Positions 93 to 37,802 of a stretch of 39,406 nt of DNA are shown here, piece after piece; within the stretch, counting starts at the first letter, position 1, and every line of letters begins with the position of its first letter. The position numbers were made by a program, and so were the translations under genes. Source of the stretch: an uncultured Candidatus Peribacteria bacterium (GTDB lineage Bacteria > Patescibacteriota > Gracilibacteria > BD1-5 > JAGOOR01); contig CAZRUI010000002.1 in assembly GCA_964603225.1 (NCBI GenBank), forward strand, positions 1 through 39,406, given 5' to 3'. A model generated the notes under the pieces. It saw only the letters and a list, made by a program, of their open reading frames with translations, was not told the DNA's origin and did not search any database.

Positions 93-104
93 CTTGAAAA
101 TATA

Positions 105-518: not shown

Positions 519-542
519 AAAAGAAATAAAGTAAAATAAGTA

Positions 543-1898: not shown

Positions 1899-1912
1899 AA
1901 CAATGAATATGA

Positions 1913-2368: not shown

Positions 2369-2425
2369 ACAGCGAGAGTTTAATAAGTGAAATTGATTTT
2401 ATCTATTTTTTACGTTTTGTATATA

Positions 2426-3025
2426 TTATTTTGTCTGGTACATTTTGAGGGCTTCCATAGTTGCGTACGCTGTTGTGATAACGTTACGACCACCATGACG
2501 TTTTGAGAGGATATTTTGGCAACCAGCGAGTTCGAGAATACGACGTGCAGAACCACCTGCGATGATACCAGTACCCTCTTTTGCTGGGTGAATCATGATT
2601 TTTACAGATTTGAACTTGGTATTTACTTGGTATGGAACGGTTCCGTTTTGGAGAGGAACTTTGATGAGATGTCGTTTTGCAGAATTGACAGCTTTTTCAA
2701 CCGCAACAGATACTTCACCTGCTTTACCAAGTCCGAAACCAACACGACCATTTCGATCACCGATGACGACAGCAGCACGGAATCGGAGCTGACGACCACC
2801 ACTCGTGACTTTTGTCACACGACCGACTTCGAGAAGTACTTCTTCGAATTCTTTTTTTACTGGTTCAAAACCAGATTTACCATCGCGACGATTGTCACGA
2901 CGTCCGCCACGGTCGTCACGACGTCCGCGACCACCACGTTCACCACGAGGTGCCGGAGCAGTTGTTTCAGTCGTAGCTTCTGGAGCTTCGTTTGTAGTTG
3001 GAGTTGTAAGTGTCTCTTCTGACAT
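2426..3025 (-). CDS. rpsE: 30S ribosomal protein S5 with an Arg/Gly/Asp-rich N-terminal extension
   Basis: The core matches S5 (V.RV.KV..GGR..RF.A.VV.GD..G.VG.G.GKA.EV..A..KA). About 55 aa of low-complexity N-terminal extension precede it. Confidence 0.93.
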   Translation of the reverse strand: MSEETLTTPTTNEAPEATTETTAPAPRGERGGRGRRDDRGGRRDNRRDGKSGFEPVKKEFEEVLLEVGRVTKVTSGGRQLRFRAAVVIGDRNGRVGFGLGKAGEVSVAVEKAVNSAKRHLIKVPLQNGTVPYQVNTKFKSVKIMIHPAKEGTGIIAGGSARRILELAGCQNILSKRHGGRNVITTAYATMEALKMYQTK

Positions 3026-3036
3026 AAATAAAAAGA

Positions 3037-3381
3037 TTAAAATATGAGGCCACCTTCTCGAGCTGCATCTGCGAGAGCTGCAACACGACCGGTATAGATA
3101 AATCCGCCTCGATCAAAAACAACAGTCTTGATTCCAGCAGCTTGAGCTTTTTTTGCGACTTCAGCACCGACTTTTTGAGCGCGCTCGATCTTAGTTCCCT
3201 TTTTGATTTCTGTGTCATGAGCAGACGCGATGGTCCGACCAGCAACATCATCAATGAGTTGTGCATAGATATATGCATTTGATCGATAGACTGCGAGTCG
3301 AGGACACGTAGCAGTACCACTGATACGAGCTCGTATTCGTTTGTGTCGGTTGTATCGTTTTTCGTGAGAAGTGAGAGTCAT
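3037..3381 (-). CDS. rplR: 50S ribosomal protein L18
   Basis: 114 aa with RHKRIR..I.GT...PRL.V.RSN..IYAQ.IDD and FDRGG..Y.GRV.A.A.AARE.GL.F. Confidence 0.94.
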
Positions 3382-3392
3382 AGTAGAAAATA

Positions 3393-3941
3393 TTAAGCTT
3401 TAGCACCTGTTTTACCTGCCTTACGACGGACGTATTCGTCGACGTATCGGATTCCTTTTCCTTTGTATGGTTCAGGAGTCTTCACAGCACGGATTTTAGC
3501 AGCAAATTCACCAACCTGTTGTGCATCAATACCAGAAATGTGAAGAACGTTTGGATTCTGAGCATCTTGTACGAGTGCTACGTCAGCTGGGATATCGAGT
3601 GTTACTTTGTGTGAGAAACCAACTGCGAGAGTGATTTTTTTACCTGTTACTTCACATCGGTAACCAACACCCTGGATCTCGAGAGATTTTTTAAATTCTC
3701 CTGCGACACCCTTGAGTTTGCTCTGGATGAGAGCCCAAGAGAGACCCCATTGTGCAAAATCTTTTCTCTCAGTCGCTGTAGATGTAAGAAGAAGAGTATT
3801 ACCTTCTAGTTTTGCATTCACAACAGATGGGAGTGTGTAGTCGAGTTTTCCTTTTGGTCCTTGAAAGACGAGTGTCGAACCATCGAGGGTTGCAGTAACA
3901 CCAGCAGGAAATGTAATAGGTTTTTTAGCGAGTCGTGACAT
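3393..3941 (-). CDS. rplF: 50S ribosomal protein L6
   Basis: 182 aa with MSR.AK.PI..P.GV and GVGYR, plus a [12 protein letters not shown]-terminal motif. Confidence 0.94.
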
Positions 3942-3949
3942 ATAGAAAA

Positions 3950-4336
3950 TTAATAAACTTCTCCGATAACCTCTCCACCGACATTGAGAGCACGTGCTTC
4001 GTAGCCAGTGATTACGCCTTTTGGAGTTGAGATAATATAGATACCAGCACCATTTCGAGATTTCTTGATAGCGGTAGAACCAACATACACACGGTGGCCA
4101 GGAGTACTGACACGGCGGAATGTAGGGATCTTTCGATGACGAGAATTATCGAGAGTGATAGTAATGGTTTTTTTGACATCTCCTTCGACGGCAAAATCAA
4201 CGATATACTTATTTTTCTTGAAGATAACCAAGATTCTCTCTTTCAGAGTAGAATATGGGACAACAAGTGACTCATGTCCGCGAACGAGAGCGTTCGAGAG
4301 TGAGACGAAAAGATCAGATATAGAATCAGTAGACAT
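3950..4336 (-). CDS. rpsH: 30S ribosomal protein S8
   Basis: The ORF-track entry (3950-4441) overextends into rpsN. The internal ATG at 4336 gives MSTDSISDLFVSLSNA..., the canonical S8 start, and the protein ends GGEVIGEVY. Confidence 0.9.
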   Translation of the reverse strand: MSTDSISDLFVSLSNALVRGHESLVVPYSTLKERILVIFKKNKYIVDFAVEGDVKKTITITLDNSRHRKIPTFRRVSTPGHRVYVGSTAIKKSRNGAGIYIISTPKGVITGYEARALNVGGEVIGEVY

Positions 4337-4349
4337 AAGAAGAATTAAA

Positions 4350-4574
4350 TTACCAGCTAGATTTACGAACTCCGAGGATTTCACCTTTGTTGACACGTTC
4401 GCGGAGCTCAATACGAGAGAGACCGAAGCGACCGATGACACCTCGACGACGACCTGTCACAATACATTGTGAGTAGATACGTGTTGAGAATGTTACTTTT
4501 TGGCCATTCGCCTTCTGACGTGCTGCGCGGAGCTTGCGTCGATTACATTTTGAGATAAGTGCTTTGCGAGTCAT
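4350..4574 (-). CDS. rpsN: 30S ribosomal protein S14 (short form)
   Basis: 74 aa, MTRKALI.K..RR...., ending RIELRE....GEILGVRKSSW, the S14 C-terminal signature. It lies between rplE and rpsH. Confidence 0.9.
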   Translation of the reverse strand: MTRKALISKCNRRKLRAARQKANGQKVTFSTRIYSQCIVTGRRRGVIGRFGLSRIELRERVNKGEILGVRKSSW

Positions 4575-4579
4575 AGAGA

Positions 4580-5116
4580 TTATTTATGAAATGGGAAACC
4601 AATATTTTGGAGGAGGAGAAGCGAGTCCTCAGGAGATTGTGTTTTTGTAACAACTGTAATCTGCATACCGTGAGTCTTGATCACATCATCTTGGACGATT
4701 TCTGGGAAGAGTGTTTGTTCTTTGAGACCGAGGTTAAAGTTTCCTGTCTTATCGATGCTCTTTGGTCGGAGACCCTGGAAGTCACGAACACGTGGGAGGA
4801 CGACATTGATGAGCTTCTCGAGGAAGTCAAACATACGTTCACCACGGAGTGTGACGGTGAGACCAACTGCGAGACCTTCACGGAGTTTGAAATTCGAAAT
4901 AGCTTTTCGTGATTTTGAGAGAACTGGTTTCTGGCCAGTGATGAGTGTGAGGTGCTTCTCAAAGAGTGAGTAGTCTTTTTGACCACCAGTCACGAGAGAA
5001 CCGATACCCATGTTCACGACTACTTTCTCGAGACGAGGAAGTGCGTTTACATTCTTCTTCAACTCTTTTGCGAGCTTTGGAAGAACAGTCGATGTATAGT
5101 GTTTGCGGAGAGACAT
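4580..5116 (-). CDS. rplE: 50S ribosomal protein L5
   Basis: 178 aa with P.LEKVV.NMG.G, RDF.GL and FPE, matching the L5 family in the canonical position. Confidence 0.94.
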   Translation of the reverse strand: MSLRKHYTSTVLPKLAKELKKNVNALPRLEKVVVNMGIGSLVTGGQKDYSLFEKHLTLITGQKPVLSKSRKAISNFKLREGLAVGLTVTLRGERMFDFLEKLINVVLPRVRDFQGLRPKSIDKTGNFNLGLKEQTLFPEIVQDDVIKTHGMQITVVTKTQSPEDSLLLLQNIGFPFHK

Positions 5117-5130
5117 AAAAAGGAGAGAAA

Positions 5131-5475
5131 TTAATCGATAGCTTTACCTGATTTTTTAGAAATACGAGTTGTTTTTTTGCCCTGCTCGATGCGAACACGA
5201 GTTGGCTTCTTCGAAGATGGATCGATGAGCATAACATTTGAAACGTGAATTGGTTTCTCAAATTGTACTTTTTGTCCTGGAGTAGTTCCCTGCTTCTTCA
5301 CGTGTTTTGTGACGATATTGACACCTTCTACGATAACCATCTGTTCTTTTGGGAATGCACGAAGAACTTTTGCTTCAACTGGTGTGCGTTTTTCAACACC
5401 ATCTTTATTCTTCTCAACGCGGAAACGGTTTTTTCCTGCGATGATACGAACGATGTCTCAAGTGTGGATTTTCAT
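5131..5475 (-). CDS. rplX: 50S ribosomal protein L24 (one in-frame UGA-Gly)
   Basis: The ORF track shows only the C-terminal 69 aa. Reading TGA at 5458-5460 as Gly gives MKIHT[G]DIVRIIAGKN..., the KGD..VIAGK KOW motif of L24. The length is 345 nt, in frame. Confidence 0.9.
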
Positions 5476-5495
5476 AATAATAAGTATTAATTCGA

Positions 5496-5867
5496 TTAGA
5501 TAACTTCTGGAGCCTTACTGATAATAGCCTTGAAACGCTTGTCACCTCGGAGCTCTCGGAATACTGGACCGAAAACACGAGTTCCCTGTGGTTCACCTTT
5601 GTCATTGACGATAACACATGCGTTGTCATCAGAACGAACAGTTGATCCATCAGCACGTTTTACTGGACGAGTTGTACGGATAACAACAGCACGAACAACA
5701 GTATGCGCCTTGACCTGACCATCTGGTTCTGCATCTTTCACAGAACAGACGATGATGTCACCTACACGAGCATAGCGATGACGTGTTCCTTTTGGGATGT
5801 TGAAACAGAGTACTTCTTTAGCACCTGTGTTATCAGCGACGACGAGTCTTGTTTCTTTTTGTATCAT
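5496..5867 (-). CDS. rplN: 50S ribosomal protein L14
   Basis: 123 aa, MIQ.ET.L.VADN.GAK...C and so on; a highly conserved L14 sequence. Confidence 0.96.
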
Positions 5868-5892
5868 AGTAAGGAAAAATTAGAGTGGCTTT

Positions 5893-6111
5893 TTAGATGA
5901 CTTTCCAACAAACTGTTTTTGAGCGAGGAGCTGTTTCTTCGATTGTGACAATCATACCTTCTTCGAGAGGAGTTTCTGCGTGAGCGTGAAACTTCTTTGA
6001 AACCGGGATATCCTTGCCATATTTCGCATGCTTGAGGTATTCAGTTACTTTGATAGTAACAGTGCCTTGCATTTTTGTAGATGTAACAGTACCTGTTTTA
6101 GTTCTTCGCAT
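5893..6111 (-). CDS. rpsQ: 30S ribosomal protein S17
   Basis: 72 aa with G.V.S.KM..TV.V.V......KY.K......KF.AH.E, in the canonical position. Confidence 0.92.
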   Translation of the reverse strand: MRRTKTGTVTSTKMQGTVTIKVTEYLKHAKYGKDIPVSKKFHAHAETPLEEGMIVTIEETAPRSKTVCWKVI

Positions 6112-6112
6112 A

Positions 6113-6316
6113 TTATTTTGACTTATTAAGTTGAGTGAGATGACGAGCTACTGCCTTGCGAGCTTCGCGGAGTTTGTGTACTTCCTTGAGTTCTCGGAGA
6201 GAGTGCTTCATCTTGAGAGAGAAAAGCTCTGCACGGAGACTCTTGAGGTCACCACCCTGAGCCTTCTTAGGTGCTTCAGTTTTTTTTGCAGGTTTTGTAG
6301 TTTTTTTAGTAGGCAT
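6113..6316 (-). CDS. rpmC: 50S ribosomal protein L29 with a Lys-rich N-terminal extension
   Basis: 67 aa with L..LR.ELF.LKM......L...H.LRE.RK.VAR; it lies between rplP and rpsQ. Confidence 0.88.
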   Translation of the reverse strand: MPTKKTTKPAKKTEAPKKAQGGDLKSLRAELFSLKMKHSLRELKEVHKLREARKAVARHLTQLNKSK

Positions 6317-6330
6317 AGTCGAGAGAGAAA

Positions 6331-6759
6331 TTAAGCAGCAAGAGCAAGAAGTGAAGAGCTATCAATAATAGTTGTTTTGAGAGAGAGTTTCGCACCAGCA
6401 AGTGTGAATGCTTCACGAGCGAGAGCGTCAGAGACACCATCGATTTCGAAGATCATTGTTCCAGCTGGGACAGAAGCATGGTAGTATTCTACGCCACCCT
6501 TTCCTCAACCCATTGGAACTTCGAGAGCTTTCTTGGTAAATGGTTTGTGTGGAAAAACACGGCACCATACTTTACCTCCACGTTGGAGTGTATGAGCAAT
6601 AGTTTTTCGAGCTGCTTCGATTTCACGAGCAGTGAGAAAACCTGATGACATCGCCTTGAGACCGTATGATCCGTGAGCGAGCATAAAGCCAACAGTCGCA
6701 TTCCCCTTCTGGGTTCCGCGCATAGCTTTTCGATATTTTGTTCGTGCTGGTTGTTGCAT
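6331..6759 (-). CDS. rplP: 50S ribosomal protein L16 (one in-frame UGA-Gly)
   Basis: The N-terminal 84 aa are in the ORF track. TGA at 6505-6507 falls in the conserved MGKGKG segment (EVPMG[G]GKGGVEYY...). The frame then continues to TAA at 6331-6333 with an EAF.LA..KL tail. Confidence 0.92.
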
Positions 6760-6784
6760 AAGACCTAAATTAAATTATTCGTGA

Positions 6785-7417
6785 TTAGTTGTTAGTAACG
6801 TCACCCTTGTAAATCCATATCTTGAGACCGATGATACCGTACATAGTGAGAGCATGCTCTACAGAGTAATCAATCGATGCCTTGATAGTTTGAGTTGGGA
6901 TATTTCCTTCCTTGTAGACTTCATGACGAGCGATTTCAGCACCTCCGATACGACCAGAGATACGGATCTTGATACCTTTTGCACCTTTTTCCATAGCTTT
7001 CGTGATAGCTTGTTTGATAACACGACGGTATGGGAGACGACGCTCGATCTGACGACCGATGCTGTCACCAACGAGTGTTGCGTGAACATCAGGATTTTTG
7101 ATTTCTTTGACGTCTACATTGACTTTCTTTCCGTAGAGAGCCATGAGCTTCTTCTGGAGTTTTGTGAGATTCTCACCATTCTTACCGAGGATAAGAGCTG
7201 TACGAGAAGTGTAGATGATAACACGGAGACCGGTATCACTGTGAGTGATAGTGACGTGACCAACTGGGAGACCTTTGAAAAATTTTCGAACGAGGTCACG
7301 GATGATAACATCCTGTTGGATAGCGGCTGTGTATTCTGCTTTATCATAGTATCCAGTAGATGCCCAAGAGCGGGTTACTCCGATACGCCAAGAGATGGGG
7401 CTGACTTTGTGTCACAT
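6785..7417 (-). CDS. rpsC: 30S ribosomal protein S3 (UGA-Gly at codon 2)
   Basis: ATG at 7415-7417, then TGA at 7412-7414, gives M[G]HKVSPISWRIG... (S3 consensus MGQKV.P...R.G). The reading is continuous with the 119-aa ORF at 6785-7144. Length is 633 nt. Confidence 0.92.
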
Positions 7418-7436
7418 AAGAGAGAAGTTTTAGATA

Positions 7437-7763
7437 TTATTTGTGAGAGAGTTCGAGAAATACATGACTCGTATGCTTGAGGATACGGTGACTGCGACCA
7501 CGACCAACTGGACGTGCACGCTTGTATGTAGGACCCTGAGCAATTGAGAGTGTATGAATCATGAGATCATCTTTTGAAGCTCCGTCATTATGTGTTGCAT
7601 TTGCAGCAGCACTGAAGAGAACTTTGTAGAGGATTTCACTTCCTTTTTTTGGGAAAAGTCGGAGCATCGCGAGACCATCGTTGACTGATTTTCCTCGTAC
7701 GAGGTTAGCGACAACACGGAGTTTTTTTGGAGAGATGCGGGCGTTTTTGAGAGTAGCTTTCAT
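7437..7763 (-). CDS. rplV: 50S ribosomal protein L22
   Basis: 108 aa with A..K..RISP.K.R.VA.L.RGK.V..A...L and GP..KR..PR..GR; L22 family. Confidence 0.93.
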   Translation of the reverse strand: MKATLKNARISPKKLRVVANLVRGKSVNDGLAMLRLFPKKGSEILYKVLFSAAANATHNDGASKDDLMIHTLSIAQGPTYKRARPVGRGRSHRILKHTSHVFLELSHK

Positions 7764-7774
7764 AGTTTTGGAAA

Positions 7775-8050
7775 TTAAGCAGCAGCAACAGCCTTACCAG
7801 CATGTTTGATAAATTTACGTGTCGGTGCGAATTCGCCGAGACGGTGACCTACCATGTCTTCTGTGACAAACACTGGTGTATGTTCTTTTCCGTTATGAAC
7901 ACCGAATGTGTGACCAACAAAATCAGGGTGAATCACAGAGGCACGAGCCCATGTCTTGATAACACTTTTTTTACCAGTTGTATTGAGAGCTGAAACCTTT
8001 TTCATGAGGTGCTCTGGGACAAACAATCATTTTTTGAGACTACGTGACAT
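7775..8050 (-). CDS. rpsS: 30S ribosomal protein S19 (one in-frame UGA-Gly)
   Basis: ATG at 8048-8050 gives MSRSLKK[G]LFVPEHL..., with TGA (8027-8029) at the invariant Gly of SLKKGPF. The rest matches S19 ([22 protein letters not shown]). Confidence 0.94.
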
Positions 8051-8052
8051 AG

Positions 8053-8907
8053 TTATGAAGCTGAAGAATTAGAAGAGACAATAGAACCTCGCTTATCAGT
8101 TGCGATCCATCGGTTTGTACGTTTGTTTTTACGAGTCTTCACACCGAGAGCTGGTTTACCCCATGGAGTCGTAGGTTGACGACCGATAGATGTATGACCT
8201 TCTCATCCTCCGTGTGGGTGGTCTACAGGGTTCATCGATGTACCGAGGTTGTGCGGACGACGACCTTTCCAACGACTACGACCAGCTTTACCAACAACGA
8301 TTTGATTGTGATCGATATTGCTGACGACACCGACTGTTGCGAAACATTCTTTGTGGATGTATCGTACTTCACCTGAATTGAGTTTGATTTGTGTATAGTC
8401 ACCTTCTTGAGAAACGATCTGAGCACCTGCACCAGCAGAACGAACTGCTTGAGCACCTTTACCGATGATGAGCTCTACATTGTGAACAAAGAGACCTGCA
8501 GGGATGTTACCAATTTTGAGACGGTTACCAGCGACAGGTTTTGCATTTGCTGAAGTGATAATAGTGTCACCAACATTCATAGTTGAGTGAGCAACGACAT
8601 AACGATGTTCTCCATCTGCATCTTTTACGAGAGCGATAAATGCTGATCGGTGTGGATCGTATTCGATAGTCTGAACAACTGCTGGGACATCCATTTTTGC
8701 AAATCGGAAGTCAACGATACGGAGACGACGCTTGTGTCCACCACCACGGAATCGTGATGTCGTACGACCAAGAGAGTTACGACCACCAGTACTCTTGTGA
8801 GCTGTTGTGAGTTTTTTAAATGGTTTGTCTGTTGTGAGTTCAGCAAAAGCGTTTCCAGACATTCCTCGTCGGCCGTTTGTAGTAGGTTTGTAGAGTTTAA
8901 TAGCCAT
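8053..8907 (-). CDS. rplB: 50S ribosomal protein L2 (one in-frame UGA-Gly)
   Basis: TGA at 8203-8205 lies in HPHGG[G]EG. The C-terminal 50 codons (..[19 protein letters not shown]..) follow, to TAA at 8053-8055. Length is 855 nt, in frame. Confidence 0.95.
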
Positions 8908-8909
8908 AA

Positions 8910-9203
8910 TTAGTCTTTAGTATGAAGTTTAGCAAGCTGAGTAATAGGTTTGTCGAGAGTGACGTATGCTTTTTTGAAAGCAGCACGACGACGAATCTGA
9001 CCCTTGCGACCATTTCGGACTTTTGAATAGTTTTTTGCAATCTGAACAGATGATACAGAGCGATCATAGAGTTCAGAAAATGCTTTTTTGATGTCAGTCT
9101 TTGTTGCATCATTTGCTACACGGAATGTGTAGACATTACCAGTCTCGAGCATACGAGATTTGTGTGATTCAACTGGTCAGAGGATAACGTTGTAGATATT
9201 CAT
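8910..9203 (-). CDS. rplW: 50S ribosomal protein L23 (one in-frame UGA-Gly)
   Basis: ATG at 9201-9203 gives MNIYNVIL[G]PVESHKS.., with TGA at 9177-9179, then joins the 80-aa ORF. It lies between rplD and rplB. Confidence 0.88.
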
Positions 9204-9207
9204 AGAA

Positions 9208-9807
9208 TTATGCGTTGAAGTGAGAAGAAAGAGTCTGAAGTGCATCCTTGGTAAATACACAGTAGTCATACTTGAGAATCTCAGCAGGGCTTGCGTGAGT
9301 CACGACATCGACGTGTGTACCGTGGAGATTTGAGAGACCGAGGATTTTCTTTGATTCAGCTGCAGAGACGAATACGAGTGCTGTATTCTCTTTTGTGATA
9401 TCAGCAAAAGCTTTTGCCATAACTGATGTTTTTGCATCGATTTTGTCGATAGTACGGATCTTACCTTCTTGAGCTTTGAGTGTGAGAGCAGATGCGAGAC
9501 CGAGACGACGTTCTTGAGCATTCATGCTGATTTGGAAATTAGCATTGCTGCGAGGACCAAATGCGACACCACCACCTTTACGAGAAGGAGAACGGTTACT
9601 ACCCTTACGAGAAGCACCTGCACCTTTTTGTTTTGTGAGCTTGCGAGTAGAACCACGACGAGCACTACGGCTGAGTGTGTGAGCTATTGGAAAACGACCA
9701 TTGTGATTCTGGAGAATCATGAGTTGAGCGAGAACACCGAGATGAGGAACGATACCAAAGAGTGATACGTCGAGTGTGTCTGGAGTTGGAGTAGAGAGAG
9801 CAGTCAT
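9208..9807 (-). CDS. rplD: 50S ribosomal protein L4
   Basis: 199 aa with T..R..V.GGG.KP..QKGTG.AR.GS.RSP-like segment (RRGSTRKLTKQKGAGASRKGSNRSPSRKGGGVAFGP). Confidence 0.93.
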   Translation of the reverse strand: MTALSTPTPDTLDVSLFGIVPHLGVLAQLMILQNHNGRFPIAHTLSRSARRGSTRKLTKQKGAGASRKGSNRSPSRKGGGVAFGPRSNANFQISMNAQERRLGLASALTLKAQEGKIRTIDKIDAKTSVMAKAFADITKENTALVFVSAAESKKILGLSNLHGTHVDVVTHASPAEILKYDYCVFTKDALQTLSSHFNA

Positions 9808-9834
9808 AGTTGAGAGCGATTATCGGATGGACGA

Positions 9835-10392
9835 TTAGAATGCGAGGTAAACAAATGTATTCATCGCTCCTGGTACTGGTCCTCGGAGAGCAACGATGTT
9901 ATTTTCACGATCGATGAGCTCGACTGGAACAGAAGCAAGAGTGACTGTTTTATTACCGTGACGACCGTGCATTTTCTTACCAGGTTTTGTACGACGTGGT
10001 TTACGAGTACCGATAGAACCAAGTGCTCGGTGAAATTTTGAACCGTGTCCACCAGGACCTCCGGCAAAATTCCAACGCTTCATAGCACCAGTGAAACCTT
10101 TACCTTTTGAGACAGATGTGAGCTTGACTGCTGCGACACCTTCGAGCGTACCGACGTCGAGAGCATCACCAACATTCATAGCAACAGCTGCATCGTATGG
10201 TACTTCTTTTCGTTTTACTGTTTTACCTTTTTTGTTTTTTGCATCGAGAACGAGTGCTGAATAACCATCTTTTTCAGCTGTTTTGATTTGAGCGACAGAG
10301 AGTTGAGGAACACGAAGAAGTGTTACTGGGACGAGAGTATCGCCGCGAGCAATCTGCGTCATTGATATTTTTTGTGCAACGAGTCCAGACAT
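9835..10392 (-). CDS. rplC: 50S ribosomal protein L3
   Basis: MSGLVAQKISMTQI... with VSKGKGF.G.MKRWNF.GGP..HGS..HR..GSIG. The start is taken at the ATG at 10390-10392, not the upstream ATG at 10422. Confidence 0.92.
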   Translation of the reverse strand: MSGLVAQKISMTQIARGDTLVPVTLLRVPQLSVAQIKTAEKDGYSALVLDAKNKKGKTVKRKEVPYDAAVAMNVGDALDVGTLEGVAAVKLTSVSKGKGFTGAMKRWNFAGGPGGHGSKFHRALGSIGTRKPRRTKPGKKMHGRHGNKTVTLASVPVELIDRENNIVALRGPVPGAMNTFVYLAF

Positions 10393-10491
10393 ATAAAAGA
10401 AAAATGAGGCGCTTACGGACATCTCGTGAGATGAAGTATAAGGGCCAAACTAGGAAATGATTCACTCCTGTTACCAGAAGGAAAACGTCGG

Positions 10492-28001: not shown

Positions 28002-29369
28002 TTATTGCAGAGTATTTCTGAGCTCATCGATATTTCCTGCCCCGAGGAGGAGGATGAGAGCATTTTGCTCTTCTTCATCGACTTTTTTGAGTTGTACGCC
28101 AGCGTCTGACAGTGTACCAATATACGTGCACGGAGCATTTTTGGCAATCATCTCAGCAAGCATTTTTGCATCGATGAGATCCCGACGCTTATCTATATCA
28201 CGTGCAGCATAAATATCGGATATATACGTCATATCTGCATGTTCAAAACTCGTCGCAAAATCATCTCTGAGATCATAGGTTCGTGAGTATTGGTGAGGTT
28301 CAAAGAAAACAATGATTTTTTTGTCTGGATGAGCTTTTCGGAGTGCATGCAGGGTTGCACGAATCTCGGTCGGATGATGCCCGTAGTCACTCATAAAGAG
28401 ATTGCTGTGGGTGGTTGTCCCGAGGATTTCCATACGTCTCCAGCTCCCTGGATACTTCTCGAGAGAAGTCGCTGATTTCGCTGGGTCAATCCCTACGAGC
28501 TGACTCACAACATAGGCTAAGCTCGCATCGAGTCGGATATGATCACCCGGGACCGTCAGATATGGAAGTGTATAGGGATATTTTCCTGGCATTTTACCAT
28601 TGAATGGTTCACCCACGAGTTCATATTCCGTGTCTGAAACAAGGACTGTCGTCGGTGCAAAATCTATCATATCATGTTTGATGGCTTCATCTCTGAGCAT
28701 CACAACACACTGTGCTGACTCTGCAAAAGTATAAAAAGCATCAAAATATGCTGCTTCGGTTTTGAAAAAATCGAGATGATCAGGGTCGATATTCGTAATA
28801 ACGGCGATATCGGGGTGATAGTTCAGGAAAGCATGGCGGTACTCACAGGCCTCGATATTCATCACTCGATTCCCATTTACACGGACATTTTTACCATCAA
28901 ATGCCTTCACCAGTGTCCCCGTAATAGTCGTTGCTTCGGCTCCAGCATCATGCAAAATCGTGCCAATCATAGCGCTTGTCGTCGATTTTCCATGTGCACC
29001 AGCGACAGCGATTTTCATCGGAAATGTATGAAATACTTCTGCCAATGCCTGAGGATACGAGAGAATCTGCGCGTTATGTTTCTTTCCTGCTGCTATTTCA
29101 GCGGTATGATTGGCTCTCACGCCATCGAGACCGAGTGCATGGTCATCGATTATTGCTTCTGTGTAAATGATTTTCTCTGTGTGTTCATTGATAGCACTCG
29201 CACCGTCAGATACGATCTCTATTCCCTCTTCCTGCAACGCATCTATCAGAGGAGAGTGCCCCATATTTGTGCCCGTCACCCGATACCCATGAGTTCTATA
29301 ATATCGAGCAAGAGCTGAGATACCTATCCCGCCAATACCAATACAGTGAATATGTTTTTGTGGTGTCAT
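28002..29369 (-). CDS. murC: UDP-N-acetylmuramate--L-alanine ligase
   Basis: MTPQKHIHCIGIGGIGISALARYY...G..V.G.N and AVAG.HGKSTT.AM; Mur ligase middle and C-terminal domains. The start is taken at ATG 29367-29369 because the upstream ATG (29405) lies inside a terminator hairpin. Confidence 0.9.
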   Translation of the reverse strand: MTPQKHIHCIGIGGIGISALARYYRTHGYRVTGTNMGHSPLIDALQEEGIEIVSDGASAINEHTEKIIYTEAIIDDHALGLDGVRANHTAEIAAGKKHNAQILSYPQALAEVFHTFPMKIAVAGAHGKSTTSAMIGTILHDAGAEATTITGTLVKAFDGKNVRVNGNRVMNIEACEYRHAFLNYHPDIAVITNIDPDHLDFFKTEAAYFDAFYTFAESAQCVVMLRDEAIKHDMIDFAPTTVLVSDTEYELVGEPFNGKMPGKYPYTLPYLTVPGDHIRLDASLAYVVSQLVGIDPAKSATSLEKYPGSWRRMEILGTTTHSNLFMSDYGHHPTEIRATLHALRKAHPDKKIIVFFEPHQYSRTYDLRDDFATSFEHADMTYISDIYAARDIDKRRDLIDAKMLAEMIAKNAPCTYIGTLSDAGVQLKKVDEEEQNALILLLGAGNIDELRNTLQ

Positions 29370-29386
29370 GATATGCTGAGTATACG

Positions 29387-29414
29387 AATAAAAAATCCCT
29401 CGCAAGGAGGGATT
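29387..29414 (-). terminator. Rho-independent terminator closing the tRNA-Val transcription unit
   Basis: On the minus strand, AATCCCTC, loop CTTGC, GAGGGATT, followed by TTTTTATT. Confidence 0.7.
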
Positions 29415-29428
29415 CTGAAATCAAAATA

Positions 29429-29446
29429 GTGGGTGATAGTGGACTC
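29429..29446 (-). repeat. 18-nt exact copy of the tRNA-Val 3' end (T-loop/T-stem/acceptor, without CCA)
   Basis: GTGGGTGATAGTGGACTC at 29429-29446 is identical to 29601-29618 inside the tRNA gene. Confidence 0.85.
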
Positions 29447-29512
29447 TCGAAGCTGTGGCCGGAGAAATGCCTTGAATGGCATTTCGAGTGGCAATGGCCA
29501 TGGGAGAAAAAA

Positions 29513-29569
29513 TGGTGGGTGATAGGCGAAAAGTGAGTGAATCTCACTTTGAGCCGAACCACTGGCCTC
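29513..29569 (-). repeat. Disrupted copy of the tRNA-Val 3' half (variable loop to CCA), with the T-loop replaced by a 29-nt hairpin-containing insert
   Basis: TGGTGGGTGATAG (29513-29525) equals 29599-29611, and CGAACCACTGGCCTC (29555-29569) equals 29618-29632. The 29 nt between them contain the perfect hairpin AAAGTGAG/CTCACTTT. Confidence 0.8.
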
Positions 29570-29598
29570 GTAAAACAAATACTGTGGTGGAGTTTAAA

Positions 29599-29675
29599 TG
29601 GTGGGTGATAGTGGACTCGAACCACTGGCCTCTTCCATGTCATAGAAGCGCTCTAACCAACTGAGCTAATCACCC
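29599..29675 (-). tRNA. tRNA-Val (anticodon GAC) with encoded CCA
   Basis: Minus strand: GGGTGAT-TA-GCTC-AGTTGGTTA-GAGC-G-CTTCT-ATGACAT-GGAAG-AGGCC-AGTGG-TTCGAGT-CCACT-ATCACCC-A-CCA. This folds as a full cloverleaf with T33, GAC and A37 in a 7-nt anticodon loop. Confidence 0.85.
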
Positions 29676-29686
29676 GAACATGTCGG

Positions 29687-30805: not shown

Positions 30806-30976
30806 GAGAAAATACTAACTAATGAGGATGAGAATGCAAGAAAATTAGCTAACTCAATATGTCCATTTCATTGGTTGAGAAACAGATTTTCATGACTGTG
30901 GGATATCTAAGTATGTAACTTCAAAATGACAACCATATCGTAAGAGTTGTGATTCAAAATTTTCTAAATATAGATT

Positions 30977-32155
30977 TCATTTTTCTTTTAAACCTTTAAT
31001 TTCAATGGTATAATTATCATCAGAACTATCGATAACCTGCCAATTAACGCGTTCTTGATTTCTTTCTAGCTGAAGTACTAGATCATCAAATAATATACTT
31101 CTGTGTGCTTGCGATAAAAATCTGTACCTTCTTTGGCGAGAATAATAACATAGTGCTCTTTTTTTCACTTCTTCCATTTTAGTATCATCGATATTTGCCC
31201 CAGATAATATACACGCTATAGTTCTATCTCGGATACTGTCTAAAATGCCACCCATACCCGCCACAGACAATCCACCAGATGTCTCCACGCGTATACCATC
31301 TTCATTGAGAAGATTTGCTACACTAACCGCAAGTCTATTTTTCCCAACAGCATAAACAGGTACTCGATTTTGACTAAGAATGTCAAAAGTAGATGATCAT
31401 GGGAGCTTTACGGCAGTTCATTCAGCGAAAACATCAATATCACGAAATTGTACCAGTCGACCTTGTTGTAATGATGTTCTCATAACATCAGAACCTACTT
31501 GTTCTACACCAATTAATTTGACATGAGGATGAAATTTGGTAGCAAGTGTCGTAATACCAGCAGCCAATCCTCAACCGCCAACAGGGAAAATAATAGTGTT
31601 AATGTCTGGATTTTGAGAAAATATTTCACAAGCGATAGTCCCTTGTCATGCCTGCACCAGAGGGTCATCAAATGGATCAATAAATACCGCTCCTTTTTTC
31701 TTCGCAAATTCCAAAGCAGCTTTTTTAGCATCATCAAATGTAGCTCATTCAATCTGAATACTTACATTTTCCCCTCAGAATTCTTGCGTCTTTCTCTGCT
31801 TGATATCTGGAGTTCATTCGGGCATAAACACATACCCTTGATTGCCAAAAAAACTACATGCCAGCGCAACTCATTGAGCATGATTACCGGCGCTCGCACA
31901 GACAATAAGAGGCTTTGATGAATGAACTTCATTTGTTTTTTTAATCGCCCAGAATGCTCCTCGTATTTTATATGATTTCACCCTCTGCAAATCTTCTCTT
32001 TTTAGAAAAACAGATCATTTTCAAGACAAAAAATGAGACAAACGTTTATTGTAGTCCAATTGTGTTTCCAATACACAAGAATTTCAAGGGCATTCCTGTC
32101 TGTGTTGTATAAAAAATTCATGTGCCTCAAGAATCGCATCAGGAGTAACAGACAT
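30977..32155 (-). CDS. ilvA: Threonine ammonia-lyase (threonine dehydratase, IlvA/TdcB family) with one C-terminal ACT-like domain; 11 UGA-Gly codons
   Basis: I translated 393 codons by hand: FLKREDLQ...SYKIRGA (PLP Lys), SAGNHAQ[G]VA, FPVGG[G]GLAAG, FAE[G][11 protein letters not shown]. Confidence 0.85.
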
Positions 32156-32247
32156 GTTTATCAAATTAATAGTAATTTTGTCAATTATATAGACCACTTT
32201 GACAAAATCAACTTTGCTATTTGTATATTTTTTCTATACTGCGCGTA

Positions 32248-33651
32248 ATGAAACTCCCCTACGTCCTCATCGTCTGACGCCCAAATGTTGGGAAAAGCAG
32301 CCTCTTCAATGCCTTTACAGGTCGAAAGATAGCTATTGTCGACGAAACTGCGAACACCACTCGTGACATCCTCGAATATCCGATGAAGGATTTTGAGACA
32401 GATTTTCAGTGGACTATTGCTGACAGTGGAGGACTCAATTTCGGTTCTCAACATCAGATTCTTCAAGATGTGAATAAGCGTGTCAACGAATGTGCAGAGC
32501 AAGCTGATCTCATCCTCTTTATCTGTGAATATGATCATCTGACTGACATCGATGACCACATCATCAATATGCTCCGAAAACTCGGAAAACCAGTCTGGCT
32601 CGTGGCGAACAAGGCGGACAATATAACACGTGTGAATGAAGCCTACGCACTGCTCTCAACTGGTTTCCCTGTCTACCCCGTCAGTGCTTCTCATCGAAAA
32701 ATAGATGAGCTCGAGACAGCCATTGTCGACTTTCTCCGAAAAAAATATCCAGAGCATACCGGTGCAGAAGAAGATGAAGGTATAAAAATAGCGCTTGTCG
32801 GACGTCCAAATGTGGGAAAAAGTAGCACATTTAATGCGCTCGTTGGATACGACAAAGTGATGGTCTCTGCAGAAGCTGGAACGACACGCGACCCTACCGA
32901 TACTGTCCTCATGTACAAAGGTCAGAAGCTCACCCTCATCGATACAGCAGGATTTCGAAAGCCAGGAAAAATCGGTGTCTACAATGTCGAGAGCTGGTCA
33001 GTTCTCAGAACAAAGGCCGCTGTCGAACGAGCTGATATCTGTGTCCTCCTCATAGACAGTGTCGAGGGAATCGTCCAACAAGACAAACACATCCTCGCAG
33101 AAGTTCTGGAACAGAAAAAAGGTGTCATCATCATGGTCAATAAATGGGATCTCTCTCAGGCAAAAACAGACATGGAACCAGAGATGTTTCATAAGCGTTA
33201 TCTCGCCTATCTCCAGCGTGAATTTGCCTACTGTCCTTGGGCAATGACTGTCTTCGCTACGGCCAGTGAAGGAAAGGGTGTCCGTGATATTCTGGAACAT
33301 GCTATCGGTATCTATCACGAACGTCAGAAACGTATCGCTACTGGTGAATTTAATCGATTCCTCACGAGAACCTGTCTCGAACATGCGCCAAGTGGAAGCC
33401 GAAAAATCCACAATCCAAAGGTCTACTACGGCTCACAAGTTGCCATCAATCCACCAAAATTTGTCGTGAATGTGAATAAACCTGAATTTATCCACTTTAG
33501 CTGGAGACGCTATCTCGAAAATCGTATTCGTGAGACATTTGGTTTCTTTGGAACACCAATAGAAGTCGATTATCATGGCAAAGATCCTGATAAAAACCCG
33601 TACAAACCAACGAAAGTGATGTCGAAGGCAATCAAAGTACCGAGAAAATAA
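32248..33651 (+). CDS. der: Ribosome-associated GTPase Der/EngA (one UGA-Gly in the first P-loop)
   Basis: MKLPYVLIV[G]RPNVGKSSLFNA (TGA at 32275-32277), a second G domain (IALVGRPNVGKSS.FNAL, DTAG.R) and a KH-like C-terminus. Confidence 0.92.
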
Positions 33652-33722
33652 ATCATGATCTGTTTTTATTAAAAATACTTTTTAAATTTGTTTTTCTGGA
33701 CAATGTATGGTAGATTTGTCTT

Positions 33723-36545
33723 ATGACAACTACTTATTTTGAAAAAAAAGGTGAACCGAAATCACCTGAAACACCACCTTCAACACCTTCAGAAACGCTG
33801 AATAGGAACGCAAATGCTCGGAATAATCTACAAGAAGCTCGACCTGTCGCTGATCTCAGACCGACAGTATCAATCAAACCACCCCCCCTTAAAAAAGATA
33901 CACAGGCACCAAATCCACGTCCATCAAATTGACGTAAAATGAATGCCGCACCTGTCACTTCAAGGGTTGATGGTATGAATAAACCAACTACAAAATGAGG
34001 TCTTCCTGAATACAATCTACAGAGAAATAATAATCCAATAAATAATGGTATAATAGATAATATAGAAAATCCGCCACCTGCCGCAGCACAAAATATCAAT
34101 GCAACATCTCCAGTAAAACAAAATACAAATAAACAACCTGAAAAAAAATCGGATACATCAACTCGCCAAAAAGTACAAGATTTCAATCGAGGATCACGTG
34201 AACACATAGCCAACAGCCCAGATATTCCAGCACCAAGATCAGATGAAACTGGACCACTACGAAACATGCGAGAGTATGCTCGAGAACAGCAAGAGAAATA
34301 TAGAAAGGAACAAGAGGATTCGACGCCGTCTAGCGATAGCGCCTCTTTTCGCGAATATCAAAGAAGAGAAGCTGGCCCTGGGTATCGCGATCCTCATTCC
34401 GACACTCTCTATACTCGTACCGCTCCTCAGGGACTTCATGTAGGTGCTATACCCTCTGCAGGAAGACAAAATTCACCGGAACAGCGAGATACGAAAACAA
34501 ACAAAAAACAACCCCATAATAGCCAAGCAAACAGGGAAGCAGCTAAAAACACTTCTTCTCCTTCTACAAACTCTGAAACAACGCCAGTCAAACAATGAGA
34601 AACAACAAATTCTGGTGCTCCACGAGTACGTCACAATACAGATACAGAAAGCAGAGTAGTAGTCGACAGAGAAGGTAGAAAAACAGGTGGAGAGAGACTC
34701 TCAGAAAGACGTACAGAAACTCCTGTAAGCCAGCCCGTAGTATCTCCATCGGATAGGACAAATTCTGGTGCTCCACGAGTACGCCATAATATAGATACTG
34801 GATCTACTGTTGTCGTCGATAGTGAATGACGTAAAATATCTGGTACTCGACAATCTGATAGGCCCCTCGAAAGAACAACAGTGCCAGAGACACAAACATC
34901 AAATACTTCATCTCGAGAGACACAAACAGAGACACAAGAAGCCACTCAAAAACCAGAAAAATCTGCAGTAAATACACCCTCAGCATCTCAAACACAAGAA
35001 ATGGAATTTGTAACAAGAGTAAATACACAGACTGGACAGAAAACTCTGCACTGGAAAAAGGCTACTGAAACAGCATGGCAAGGAAGTGATGGTTCTACGT
35101 CAAGTGACAATTTCCCCCAGCATTCTATTACAAGGGGGTCTCAACCGCCAACTGGATTTGAAAATCTCTACACACCGAATAATGCAACACCAAGCCAATC
35201 AACTGCAGAATCAACTACTCCAAAAAAGCCAGAAATTCCTTCAGAAACAGCACAAAACTTTGAGCCAACAGGTGATATAGATGCAGAAACAGCAAAACGA
35301 GATCAAGAAGAAATGGCAAAATACAAAGCTGACCAAGCAAAAAAGACCCCTGAACAAATAGCACAAGAACGTCGTGAGGCAAAAGAGTTGTTTGATCTAG
35401 GACGCGGAGATACAAGTGGTGTGACCGAAGTGACATGAGAAAAGGCAAGAAAATACAACACGCCTGCAGACGCTCCGGAAAATCCAGATCAAAAAACAGA
35501 TAGATCAACTCAACCGATGACAGATATCGTAGAGGGTCCAACACCGGCAATAGATACAAAGAAAAACCTACCTCCTCTGGGATGAAATCTCGCCCAAGAT
35601 ACACCATTAGCTAAGACAGACGATGGGGTCAGTCAAAATCTTGTACGCGGAGAATGAAATACCATCTACCAACCCGTCAATTTATCACCAACAGAACAAC
35701 ATCCAGAATGAGAAAGAGGACGTATTTCATATACCCCTCCTCCAAAAAATATAACTGGTGCTTTTGACCCCTATGCCGGCATGGATCGTATGCGTCAAGA
35801 AGAACAGCAAGAAGGATGGACACGATTTGAATGACCACAAGATTGGAAAGAAGGAGATAATAGAGAAACTCAATTACGACAATCTTTTGGTGACAAATGA
35901 ACAAGATTGCTCAACAATCAACAAGCTACCCACGACACTGCGGCACTATCAAAATGAGATGGTATGGTTATAAATGGATCTCCCCATCCTGATTTGGCAA
36001 AAAGACGAGCAGAAAGAGTCGCTCAGCGTAGAGCCGAACGAAGACCAACCCCTAATACAAGCCCAGATGGCTCAGTTCTCAACGATGATATCTCTACATT
36101 TGATTTTGGTGCCTCTATAGGATCTCGCCATGCTATTGTTAATAATTCTACAGGAGAAGTATGGCGCTCAAGGCAAGATCGGAGAGAAGGGAAACCGCCA
36201 GTAGCTGTACAAGTCAATCGATGATATGTCAATCGAATAGACAGTGGTGGGAGTCAAAATGCCCCAAACTCAGATCAATTACTCGAATTAAAATGACCCA
36301 ACCCGTACAATCTCCCTTTTAGTACAGAAAATCATAGAGTTTTCGTAGCAAATGGAACTATCTATGCAGGTGGCACAAATGCTGATAAAAACGGACAGAT
36401 AACAACTCGTAGGATCGGAAGATATAATGCTGATAACGGAGAAGTAGTTATCGACCAGAAAGATCCTGCTTTTATCGAATGGAGACGAAAAATGGAAAAA
36501 GATAAAGCAATTCCAACACCATTGCAAGACAATACATTGTTATAG
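33723..36545 (+). CDS. Large (940 aa) low-complexity Pro/Thr/Gln/Asn/Glu/Lys-rich hypothetical protein, 13 UGA-Gly codons
   Basis: ORF-track pieces 33723-, 34266-, 34881- and 35964- all share one frame. I checked every codom between them by hand and found no TAA or TAG from 33723 to TAG at 36543-36545. There are 13 in-frame TGA codons, a 51-aa tandem repeat, and no N-terminal signal peptide. Confidence 0.75.
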
Positions 36546-36820
36546 GATAGATATTTTGTACGGAAAAAGCTCGATAAAGGAGTTTTTGAGAGTCCTGAAT
36601 GAAATAAATCAGGGAGAAAAAATTAAAAAGGCGCTTCCACTTGATCAAAAATATCCTGGTCGAGTAAGGCTCGCAACTATGCATACTCCAATGAGTACAC
36701 TCAAAAACATATAATCAGTCGAGAAAAATAAAACAAAAAATCCTCTCGTAAACAGAGATAGAGGTGACATCAAAAAAAGAGAGAAGTGTTCACAAAGTTG
36801 ATTATAATTATATGAATCAC

Positions 36821-36849
36821 TTGACCCCCCTATCTATAAATGATACAAT
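36821..36849 (+). promoter_or_regulatory. Strong extended -10 sigma70-type promoter; predicted leaderless transcript
   Basis: TTGACC (36821-36826), a 17-nt spacer ending in TGA, and TACAAT (36844-36849). The ATG at 36856 is 6 nt after the -10 box. Confidence 0.6.
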
Positions 36850-36855
36850 AAGCGT

Positions 36856-37434
36856 ATGTCATTTGAAGCTCAAAAAAATCTCGAAAATAACAATCCTTTT
36901 AATCCGAGTCAAAACCTCGAAAAGAGTCAAAAAACTCAGTCTGCTCTCGCAGGACAAGTGCGTGAGGACAGACGAGTAAGAGATATGGCTCCTGATGAAA
37001 AGAAAAAAGTGAATGAAGTCGAGTCAGATATAAGAAATCTGATGCAACATGATGATATCATTGAGCTCAATGCGCGACTCCGAGATCCTTCTCTGAAAAA
37101 TTTCATTAGTGATACACTTCGACGCGTCATAAATGAATGGCTTCGAACTGCCAATAAAGAAAAAATAAGAGGGTATATCAATGCCAATAACATGGGTGCC
37201 GTGACCGACGAGATGGCATCACAACTCCATGAAGTCAAGGGATGATACCACGAGATTTTTCAGCGACTCGATACGGAGCTCGCCCAGCCAGAAGCTCTCA
37301 CGGATGATCGTGAAACTATCCTTGCTCTTCGGGATGAAGTAGAAGAAGCAGAGTTAATGGTGGATACCCTCCTCTCACAGCTGTCGACTATAGGTCAGAG
37401 AATGCCTGAGAGAAATTCTGGATTATCTACTTAA
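36856..37434 (+). CDS. Hypothetical helical / coiled-coil protein (192 aa, one UGA-Gly)
   Basis: The 129-aa ORF continues through TGA at 37243-37245 to TAA at 37432-37434. It is charged with a heptad-like composition. No family was recognised. Confidence 0.6.
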
Positions 37435-37442
37435 AAAAACAT

Positions 37443-37802
37443 ATGCCTACTCCAAAGAAAAAAAAGCCAGAAATACAAGTCATCGAACAAGCTCAAGCTG
37501 CCAATGAGGAGAGAGCCTATAAAGTAAATGAAATGGAGGATTTGGTACATAATTTCGATGTTCAAAAAATCCTCAATCTCAACGAAAAACTCCGAGCGTA
37601 TTATGAGAAAAAGGAAGATGAAGAAATCCTCGAGCTCCTCGATCGTATGACCGTCGTCATGAATGAGGTGAGAGAAATCATCGATCAGGTCAAAGCAAAG
37701 AGAATCTCTCTCGAACAAGGGCAGAGAGAGATACAAGAAAAACTCCAGGAAATCAACCAAGTTCTCCAGATGATGCAAGACTGGCAAGCAACTGGCCTCT
37801 AA
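37443..37802 (+). CDS. Hypothetical coiled-coil protein (119 aa)
   Basis: Intact ORF starting 8 nt after the previous gene, E/K/Q/L-rich, followed directly by a terminator. Confidence 0.6.
   Translation: MPTPKKKKPEIQVIEQAQAANEERAYKVNEMEDLVHNFDVQKILNLNEKLRAYYEKKEDEEILELLDRMTVVMNEVREIIDQVKAKRISLEQGQREIQEKLQEINQVLQMMQDWQATGL

Follow-up and report, generated by a model that had tools for sequence, protein, structure and literature searches.

Introduction

Gracilibacteria have been described as host-dependent bacteria that express pili and secretion systems (PMC11452946). In a BD1-5 Gracilibacteria genome, a hypervariable PTD-repeat protein with an N-terminal transmembrane segment and a long perfect tandem array of the tripeptide was put forward by its authors as a possible host-attachment factor (Sieber et al., 10.1101/595074). 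Here we analysed a gene at positions 33723 to 36545 of a 39,406-nucleotide contig (CAZRUI010000002.1, assembly GCA_964603225.1; the whole stretch is hereafter called the window) from an uncultured bacterium deposited as Candidatus Peribacteria, and we refer to this gene and its product as the target. Like the PTD-repeat protein, the target is lineage-specific, P/T-rich, mostly coil, encoded in a genome that uses genetic code 25 (TGA = Gly) and missing from related genomes, and it lies at a locus with unusual nucleotide-level variation. Unlike the PTD-repeat protein, it has neither a transmembrane segment nor a short tandem array (Tandem Repeats Finder), it varies by block indels and mosaic recombination instead of short-repeat slippage, and it has no sequence similarity outside its own family.

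Other described systems resemble the target in part. The pneumococcal PspA/PspC and streptococcal M-like proteins, mosaic and modular proteins on the surface of Gram-positive pathogens, consist mainly of coiled coil, have a signal peptide and are held by a defined anchor, either choline-binding repeats or LPXTG. Like them, the target gains and loses blocks, recombines between lineages and combines a variable N-terminal part with a more conserved C-terminal part (which serves anchoring in those proteins), whereas signal peptide, anchors and coiled coil are not present in it. The non-catalytic C-terminal half of RNase E and the polar organiser proteins are disordered scaffolds with short conserved microdomains. 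Like the RNase E C-terminal half, the target is a long low-complexity chain in which only short segments are conserved and predicted to be structured, but there is no homology between the two, the target has no attached catalytic domain, and it is accessory and mosaic, not core.

Results

The target is a protein-coding gene read with TGA as glycine

The target is a genuine protein-coding gene of a Gracilibacteria-group bacterium that reads TGA as Gly (code 25).

33723..36545, + strand: target gene, read with TGA = Gly; 940 sense codons, 13 in-frame TGA

The original prediction, made from the letters of the window, had joined four pieces of an open reading frame (ORF) track and the gaps between them into one frame without TAA or TAG. 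Its coordinates, 940 codons and 13 TGA positions were all reproduced exactly, and the four pieces form a single gene once TGA is taken as sense, with TGA/GGN swaps among the orthologues. The frame starts with ATG at 33723, ends with a TAG stop at 36543-36545 and contains zero in-frame TAA or TAG; its in-frame TGA codons lie at 33930, 33996, 34596, 34827, 35436, 35583, 35655, 35709, 35832, 35898, 35955, 36222 and 36294. An in-frame stop at 33711-33713, 9 nt before the ATG, means that the protein is not extendable N-terminally, and a hidden signal peptide is therefore ruled out.

Over the same stretch the other two + frames contain 30 and 38 TAA or TAG codons. The probability of meeting no stop in 940 codons, calculated from the local base composition, was ~1e-18, and the longest open run in shuffled target sequence was 296 codons (n = 500 shuffles). 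Base composition varied by codon position. When frames were scored for synonymous codons, with the confident genes of the window as training set, the target frame (+0.09) was the only clearly positive one; four of the other frames scored -0.23 to -0.28 and one scored -0.003.

The window uses code 25. TGA stands at invariant glycines (# = TGA) of S3 (M#HKV), of L2 (HPHGG#EG), of the Der P-loop (IV#RPNVGKS) and, twice, of threonine dehydratase (SAGNHAQ#VA and VGG#GL). Within the target family, 61 of the 108 non-TGA codons were GGN in alignment columns where any of six homologues has TGA, and two columns had TGA in all five orthologues (5/5). The nearest genomes, which are metagenome-assembled genomes (MAGs), likewise need TGA as a sense codon, and the target orthologues and the distant homologue all come from TGA-recoded genomes. 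The only tRNA inside the window is tRNA-Val(GAC). Being unseen under the standard code is the usual state for genes of this clade.

TGA use differed along the window. Most ORFs of the ribosomal-protein operon with secY (100-10400, - strand) had 0 in-frame TGA and the others had 1, unlike the accessory genes of the window, which carry 13-14; this fits TGA avoidance in highly expressed genes. Ten of the nearest genomes (L002-L006, L009, L013, L014, L016 and L017) were deposited as 'Candidatus Peribacteria' despite their sense TGA, and other nearest MAGs carry the label Candidatus Gracilibacteria. The Peribacteria label (NCBI phylum Peregrinibacteriota) is probably an artefact of automated taxonomy mapping.

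Orthologues, purifying selection and family status

A first search of 5.8 billion proteins gave P0001 as sole match, an 871-residue JGI (3300056827) 'hypothetical protein' translated with W at the TGA sites. At the locus of P0001 (L001), the target orthologue lies directly after der, as in the window. The two proteins were 86% identical over 860 aligned residues and all indels between the genes were multiples of three. Ten TGA codons were common to both and two were swapped between TGA and GGA; differences at codon positions 1/2/3 numbered 80/64/172. An exhaustive HMMER search (phmmer with P0001) of 1.84 billion representatives yielded 8 matches, 6 of them standard-code fragments of the target family. 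Further contigs came from those fragments and a profile search.

L082/L083: orthologue, partial
L085/L086: orthologue, 833 codons, open at both contig ends
L087/L088: orthologue, 862 residues, 13 TGA
L089: orthologue, C-terminal fragment
L084: distant homologue, C-terminal only; 35-36% identity over the last ~140 residues of the target

The family thus totals five orthologues (L001, L082/83, L085, L087 and L089) and the distant C-terminal homologue L084. An apparent frameshift in the orthologue on Logan contig L082 (~nt 1413-1550) is probably an assembly error, since the overlapping sister-run contig L083 reads straight through.

The ratio of nonsynonymous to synonymous substitution rates (dN/dS; Nei-Gojobori, five pairs) was 0.115-0.158 over the last 335 residues and 0.33-0.73 upstream of them. 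The original prediction had looked to conserved homologues and purifying selection for its test, and both were found. This pattern of a variable N-terminal and a conserved C-terminal part is the reverse of that in polymorphic toxins, and no toxin domain was found in the target by Pfam.

The rival notion of a non-functional sequence, either a chance frame in A-rich DNA or a decaying pseudogene terminated at TGA, could draw on the odd composition of the region (AT skew 0.36, 39% A), on the low-complexity product and on the share of TGA among Gly codons, which is 20% in the target vs 5% in the housekeeping genes of the window. It is contradicted by the chance of ~1e-18 and the shuffles that never exceeded 296 codons, by a frame kept in five orthologues, with window-L001 indels in-frame and dN/dS well below 1, and by TGA/GGN swaps at the same columns in a window where TGA = Gly is proven in neighbouring essential genes. 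We regard the notion as scarcely credible, and a chance ORF or pseudogene as effectively refuted.

The statement in the original prediction that no family could be recognised held after searches of Pfam, NCBIfam, PHROGs, PDB and the collections of 5.8 and 1.84 billion proteins. The full target protein had no match in Pfam at E <= 1, and none in NCBIfam or PHROGs; a profile of the C-terminal 155 residues had no match among PDB sequences at E <= 10. When the full-length target and profiles of its last 155 and 335 residues were run against the 5.8 billion proteins, they retrieved orthologue fragments only. Pattern scans of GTDB genomes and JGI metagenome contigs found no target relatives, and a pattern scan of 2.9 million viral contigs (IMG/VR) found none either, with the limit that such scans need exact short peptide patterns and miss divergent copies; the GTDB scan missed L087, which is in an NCBI MAG. 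Two candidate relatives were rejected. P0006 (3261 residues, 26 FN3 repeats) was judged to be noise because 16 separate stretches together make up its 42 bits and the target matches no FN3 model, and P0008 was low-complexity. By these searches the target protein founds a small family of its own, and the only relatives detected belong to a handful of uncultured, closely related lineages. The family is new in having no outside homologues, but an orphan disordered protein in a recoded genome of the candidate phyla radiation is a familiar object.

Public collections hold the target family only as a Trp-at-TGA translation or as standard-code fragments of 76-223 residues (P0001 and P0002-P0012), and such mis-translation hampers both homology search and structure prediction for it. 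Orphan families of this sort are effectively invisible because protein databases mis-handle TGA-recoded genes.

Conserved modules in a variable chain

Conserved and variable blocks alternate along the target.

33882..34157, + strand: residues 54-145, low-complexity; without counterpart in L001, of different sequence in L085 and L087 (family alignments)
34170..34316, + strand: module A, KVQDFNRGSREHIANSPDIPAPRSDETGPLRNMREYAREQQEKYRK; conserved, ends in a predicted helix
34320..34520, + strand: residues 200-266; block in window and L001, missing from L085 and L087
34578..34892, + strand: old tandem duplication of a ~51-residue unit (..TNSGAPRVRHNxDTxSxVVVDxEGRK..; family alignment)
34998..35177, + strand: conserved module EMEFVTRVNTQTGQKTLHW...GFENLYTP with predicted beta-hairpin; entire block deleted in L087
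35265..35411, + strand: conserved helical hairpin GDIDAETAKRDQEE...ERREAKELFDL, then conserved GRGD
35538..36542, + strand: C-terminal third, residues 606-940; most constrained part, present in every orthologue
36333..36503, + strand: C-terminal folded module, residues 871-927; four beta-strands then a helix (AlphaFold)

The core of module A, ~90 nt at ~34173-34262, was almost frozen at its synonymous sites in each of the four orthologues that possess it. Codon identity there was 0.96-1.0 in every pair compared, while the number of synonymous substitutions per site (dS) reached ~1.5 in the rest of the gene, and the target and L001 were 100% identical in nucleotides over 34198-34297. Neither an RNA-structure signal nor an Rfam match emerged for the block (~34173-34262). 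A recombination patch that has swept, or some constraint acting on the nucleotides themselves, could account for it.

The ~51-residue duplication was the only internal repeat in the target; Tandem Repeats Finder returned nothing over 33600-36900. The window, L001 and L082/83 have two copies of the unit, and L085 and L087 have one. Between copies, identity is 58.6% at the protein level and 69% within a core of 36 codons.

The RGD tripeptide at 35403-35411, pointed out in the original prediction, corresponds to residues 561-563 and is kept in 5/5 orthologues. We see no reason to tie it to integrin-type binding, as it lies within a block that is conserved anyway.

Predicted disorder and the C-terminal folded module

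The target protein has 940 residues (103.7 kDa, isoelectric point 8.65) and no Cys. It is very hydrophilic. T (10.3%) and P (9.0%) are its most frequent residues, followed by R (8.2%) and by E, S and N (7.6% each), so that the earlier description of a product dominated by P/T/Q/N/E/K/S was broadly right but left out R, the third commonest residue. In the charge-hydropathy comparison it falls on the disordered side of the boundary (0.360 vs 0.415). Kyte-Doolittle analysis in 19-residue windows revealed no membrane segment (highest mean 0.28), and no signal peptide was seen, as judged from hydropathy and the upstream in-frame stop, at the N-terminus MTTTYFEKKGEPKSPETPP; the claim of the original prediction that both are missing stands. 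The C-terminus (...IPTPLQDNTLL) has no sorting motif, and Pfam and NCBIfam recognised no adhesin or cell-wall sorting domain (LPXTG, choline-binding, Ig-like, FN3 and similar) in the target.

Structure models were made with AlphaFold2 for P0001, with W at its TGA sites, and for the last 82 residues of the window's own protein, which are TGA-free; the alignments were shallow (5-10 rows). The P0001 model had a mean predicted local distance difference test score (pLDDT) of 49.7, with 638 of 871 residues (~73%) below 50, and about three quarters of the target chain are predicted to be disordered. Against this background several islands were modelled with higher confidence. The helix of module A (P0001 102-123, in REYAREQQEKYRK) had pLDDT 70-86, the beta-hairpin in EFVTRVNTQTGQKTLHW (strands P0001 353-357 and 364-368) had 73-78, and the helical hairpin (helices P0001 452-470 and 474-491) had 92-94. 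Two independent AlphaFold runs agreed on the topology of the C-terminal module (pLDDT 86-93 in the full-length model, 72-86 in the model of 82 residues). The original prediction that only the last ~110 residues look foldable was therefore approximately right, with the refinement that the confidently modelled part is ~871-927 together with three short islands upstream. Strong purifying selection extends over the entire last ~335 residues, beyond this confident fold.

The models were compared with known structures by Foldseek; a match was to be accepted at E < 1e-3 or a template modelling (TM) score >= 0.5. Nothing significant was found in PDB or BFVD, and the BFVD matches were meaningless coil-on-coil superpositions with a root-mean-square deviation (rmsd) of ~60 A. 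In both models the top compact PDB neighbour of the C-terminal module was the cell-wall-targeting SH3b domain of lysostaphin/ALE-1 (PDB 5leo, 4lxc, 1r77). In the domain-only model 36-39 columns superposed at an rmsd of 1.8-1.9 A, with E 0.35-0.89 and TM 0.35-0.38, values that are not significant. The single hhalign comparison with the lysostaphin SH3b domain gave a probability of 0.7% (E 0.085). The two domains are alike in that ~38 residues of beta-meander superpose at 1.8-1.9 A, and each forms a small binding-type domain at the C-terminal end of a larger chain. They differ in that the match covers part of each domain and is not accompanied by sequence or profile similarity, and in that the target module has an extra C-terminal helix. 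We take the resemblance, which comes from the models, as a lead and not as membership.

An intracellular disordered scaffold or hub, whose short conserved microdomains would recruit partners, agrees with a protein that has no export signals and in which short conserved structured islands are set within a long disordered chain. Its more specific support came from the genomic position, as the gene follows der directly and on the same strand in two genomes. As described below, this der link, the only specific support, is not conserved: the der flanks of 16 relatives do not carry the family, which may sit elsewhere in those genomes. Core cellular scaffolds, moreover, are not normally accessory, mosaic and exchanged between lineages. 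We consider a scaffold of this kind rather unlikely.

The target occupies a variable slot and is exchanged between lineages

The genomic setting was compared by a Der-based scan that yielded 17 related species-level genomes with Der 79-96% identical.

32248..33651, + strand: der (engA), conserved left boundary of the variable slot; Der motifs, TGA at P-loop glycine
33652..33722, + strand: der-to-target spacer, 71 nt, kept between window and L001
36856-37434 (192 aa) and 37443-37802 (119 aa), + strand: two small predicted coiled-coil genes, conserved right slot boundary

Among the loci L001-L018, the target adjoins der only in L001 (tblastn, code 25). Gene order was otherwise kept as dnaJ-like gene, der, variable slot, coiled-coil pair and genes matching window 37.8-39.4 kb. 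Homologues of the coiled-coil pair follow the slot in L002-L005, L008-L010, L013 and L018 and are missing from the L001 and L087 neighbourhoods. The slot itself (window 33652-36855) ranges from ~100 bp to 5.8 kb among relatives (L002-L018), and in other species it holds unrelated, very hydrophilic, TGA-rich ORFs of 100-1008 residues, such as L005 12961-15987 (1008 aa, 32 TGA) and L013 12128-14446 (772 aa, 22 TGA). The target had no similarity at E <= 1 to this other cargo (L005_1008, L013_772, L004_222 and others), and hhalign found none to the C-terminal half of L005_1008, a slot protein unrelated to it. The L004/L087 MAG has its target orthologue on another contig, after a radical-SAM gene. 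Conserved synteny, which the original prediction had suggested looking for, did not materialise: the target follows der in the window and L001 only and is missing from that slot in 16 other relatives. A functional link between the target and der was rejected because the adjacency is not conserved.

The spacer stretch common to the window and L001, which reaches into the target start codon, is TAGATTTGTCTTATG. The spacer presumably carries the target promoter and translation start signals; a simple sigma-70 scan detected no canonical promoter on its + strand (33652..33722).

Between the window and L001, dS was 0.34 in the target and 1.3-2.9 in four flanking housekeeping genes. Der places the window nearer the L004/L087 MAG (dS 0.87), whereas the target places it much nearer L001 (dS 0.34) than L087 (1.05). 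The nearest orthologue, judged by codon identity, switches between segments of the target. At identical residues in 511-570, codon identity was 0.96 between L001 and L087 and 0.74-0.78 between the window and L001. The low dS of the target and the switching of partners indicate exchange of the gene and its pieces between lineages. On comparison of these sequences the target is both accessory and mosaic, being patchy in distribution, found at differing positions, subject to block gain and loss, and exchanged between lineages. The mosaic exchange and the location in a hypervariable slot are in our judgement the most interesting results.

Patchiness of this kind could also be explained if the target were mobile-element cargo or a phage-derived gene (structural, injected or defence-related). 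The differing genomic positions in relatives, a synonymous divergence that is low vs the flanks and a slot with unrelated cargo are what such an origin would leave. Yet the target had no PHROGs match and no relative in the 2.9 million viral contigs, its BFVD matches were those at rmsd ~60 A, and neither in the window nor in L001/L087 did we notice an integrase, a transposase or a flanking repeat. Heavy use of TGA = Gly (13 sites) also suits a long-term resident of code-25 genomes. We therefore regard a mobile or phage origin as very improbable.

The same data bear on the idea that the target is an exported adhesin or effector for contact with a host or prey, leaving the cell non-classically, for instance via a type IV pilus/type II-like or type IV secretion route. 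In such a protein the C-terminal module would bind the envelope of the contacted cell, and pressure from the host would drive the evolution of the variable disordered region. Accessory distribution, a hypervariable slot, block indels, higher N-terminal dN/dS, exchange and mosaicism are the usual marks of proteins that are exposed or take part in interactions; the slot and neighbourhood cargo includes Cys-rich coiled-coil proteins that are clearly secreted (L018_563 and the L084 paralogues); and the sub-threshold SH3b-like module and the host dependence described for Gracilibacteria, with expression of pili and secretion systems (PMC11452946), would fit as well. On the other side, the target has no signal peptide, membrane segment or sorting motif, and upstream extension is impossible. 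Pfam and NCBIfam found no known adhesin or effector domain, the SH3b likeness stayed below threshold, and the argument from neighbourhood is guilt by association. Such a role seems to us possible, if unlikely.

Other cargo and neighbouring genes

The slot proteins L005 12961-15987 and L013 12128-14446 have in common an N-terminal helical and long Gly/Ala-rich region (36% identity over 358 residues) and differ in their C-terminal halves, a layout that recalls polymorphic toxins. A metallophosphatase in the C-terminal half of L013_772, considered on the basis of GDxxGDR / GNHE / HGH motifs, was not confirmed by any Pfam match. A second orphan family, of small hydrophilic proteins with an EGNRGEEAWH-like motif, fills the der slot in several relatives. 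In L087 it lies 0.8 kb downstream of the target orthologue, and it is not in the window or the fetched part of L001.

L004 11319-11987, L010 5249-5785, L009 3264-3713, L018 3221-3652, L087 11099-12010: EGNRGEEAWH-like family

Following the distant C-terminal homologue of the target, L084 carries two tandem paralogues (549-2600 and 2741-4850) of ~690 residues each. Both start with a hydrophobic segment, continue with a long coiled-coil-like region rich in N/T/K and finish Cys-rich. The der-slot protein L018 839-2530 has a layout that is similar by eye, with a weak DUF4215 Cys-repeat match; it had no BLASTP similarity to the L084 paralogues at E <= 1e-3.

The coiled-coil pair at 36856-37802 had no match in Pfam, NCBIfam or PHROGs. 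A good match to an extended -10 promoter, TTGACC-17-TACAAT, lies at 36821-36849 directly upstream of the 36856-37434 gene, and the second coiled-coil protein (37443-37802) ends in ...LQMMQDWQATGL. On the other side of der, a threonine dehydratase-like gene with a PALP domain (30845-32197, - strand, 14 in-frame TGA) stands between the dnaJ-like gene and der. It is missing from that position in all relatives compared; the place is taken by a DKNYY-domain gene in L001 and by a spacer of ~50 bp in the rest. Farther left, a murC-like gene (28002-29681, - strand) seems to run upstream through tRNA-Val(GAC) (29599-29675, - strand) when ORFs are called with TAA and TAG as the only stops. This is an artefact of permissive code-25 ORF calling, and similarity to Mur ligases begins near 29405.

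Discussion

Taken as a whole, the evidence is in our view best explained by an orphan, disordered, accessory-mosaic gene whose product has a C-terminal docking core and an N-terminal spacer, a reading that we hold with a confidence somewhat short of even. In this mechanism, to which we give low confidence, the constrained C-terminal third may be the functional core and may dock the protein to a partner, as its conservation in sequence suggests. One candidate for that partner, taken tentatively from the sub-threshold SH3b likeness, would be a cell-wall or other envelope ligand. The variable disordered N-terminal two thirds, as modelled, might then form an extended spacer that presents short binding modules, and the protein could work as a multivalent tether or scaffold, either inside the cell or exported non-classically.

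Several observations weigh against this reading. The N-terminal dN/dS of 0.33-0.73 could mean relaxed constraint and not spacer function. The SH3b likeness misses every threshold (Foldseek E >= 0.35, TM < 0.4, hhalign 0.7%, no Pfam), and the missing signal peptide, membrane segment, Cys and sorting motif argue against a classical surface protein. Low pLDDT is no proof of disorder, especially for the conserved residues 606-870, as the alignments were shallow and W stood in place of G.

A more far-reaching version would place the target in a pool of interchangeable, non-classically exported host-interaction factors that are shuffled between lineages and parked in hot spots like the der slot. The SH3b-like C-terminal module would grip host or prey peptidoglycan or envelope, the mosaic N-terminal modules would diversify under host pressure, and the frozen block of module A would be a recombination junction or regulatory element driving the shuffling. 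We consider this combination improbable.

On present evidence, the target is a well-supported hypothetical protein. It illustrates that purifying selection can clearly act on a protein of 104 kDa that is mostly disordered. Its C-terminal third (residues 606-940) is a defined candidate for binding and localisation work, and if the target is a host-contact factor, it would offer a useful handle on the biology of Gracilibacteria.

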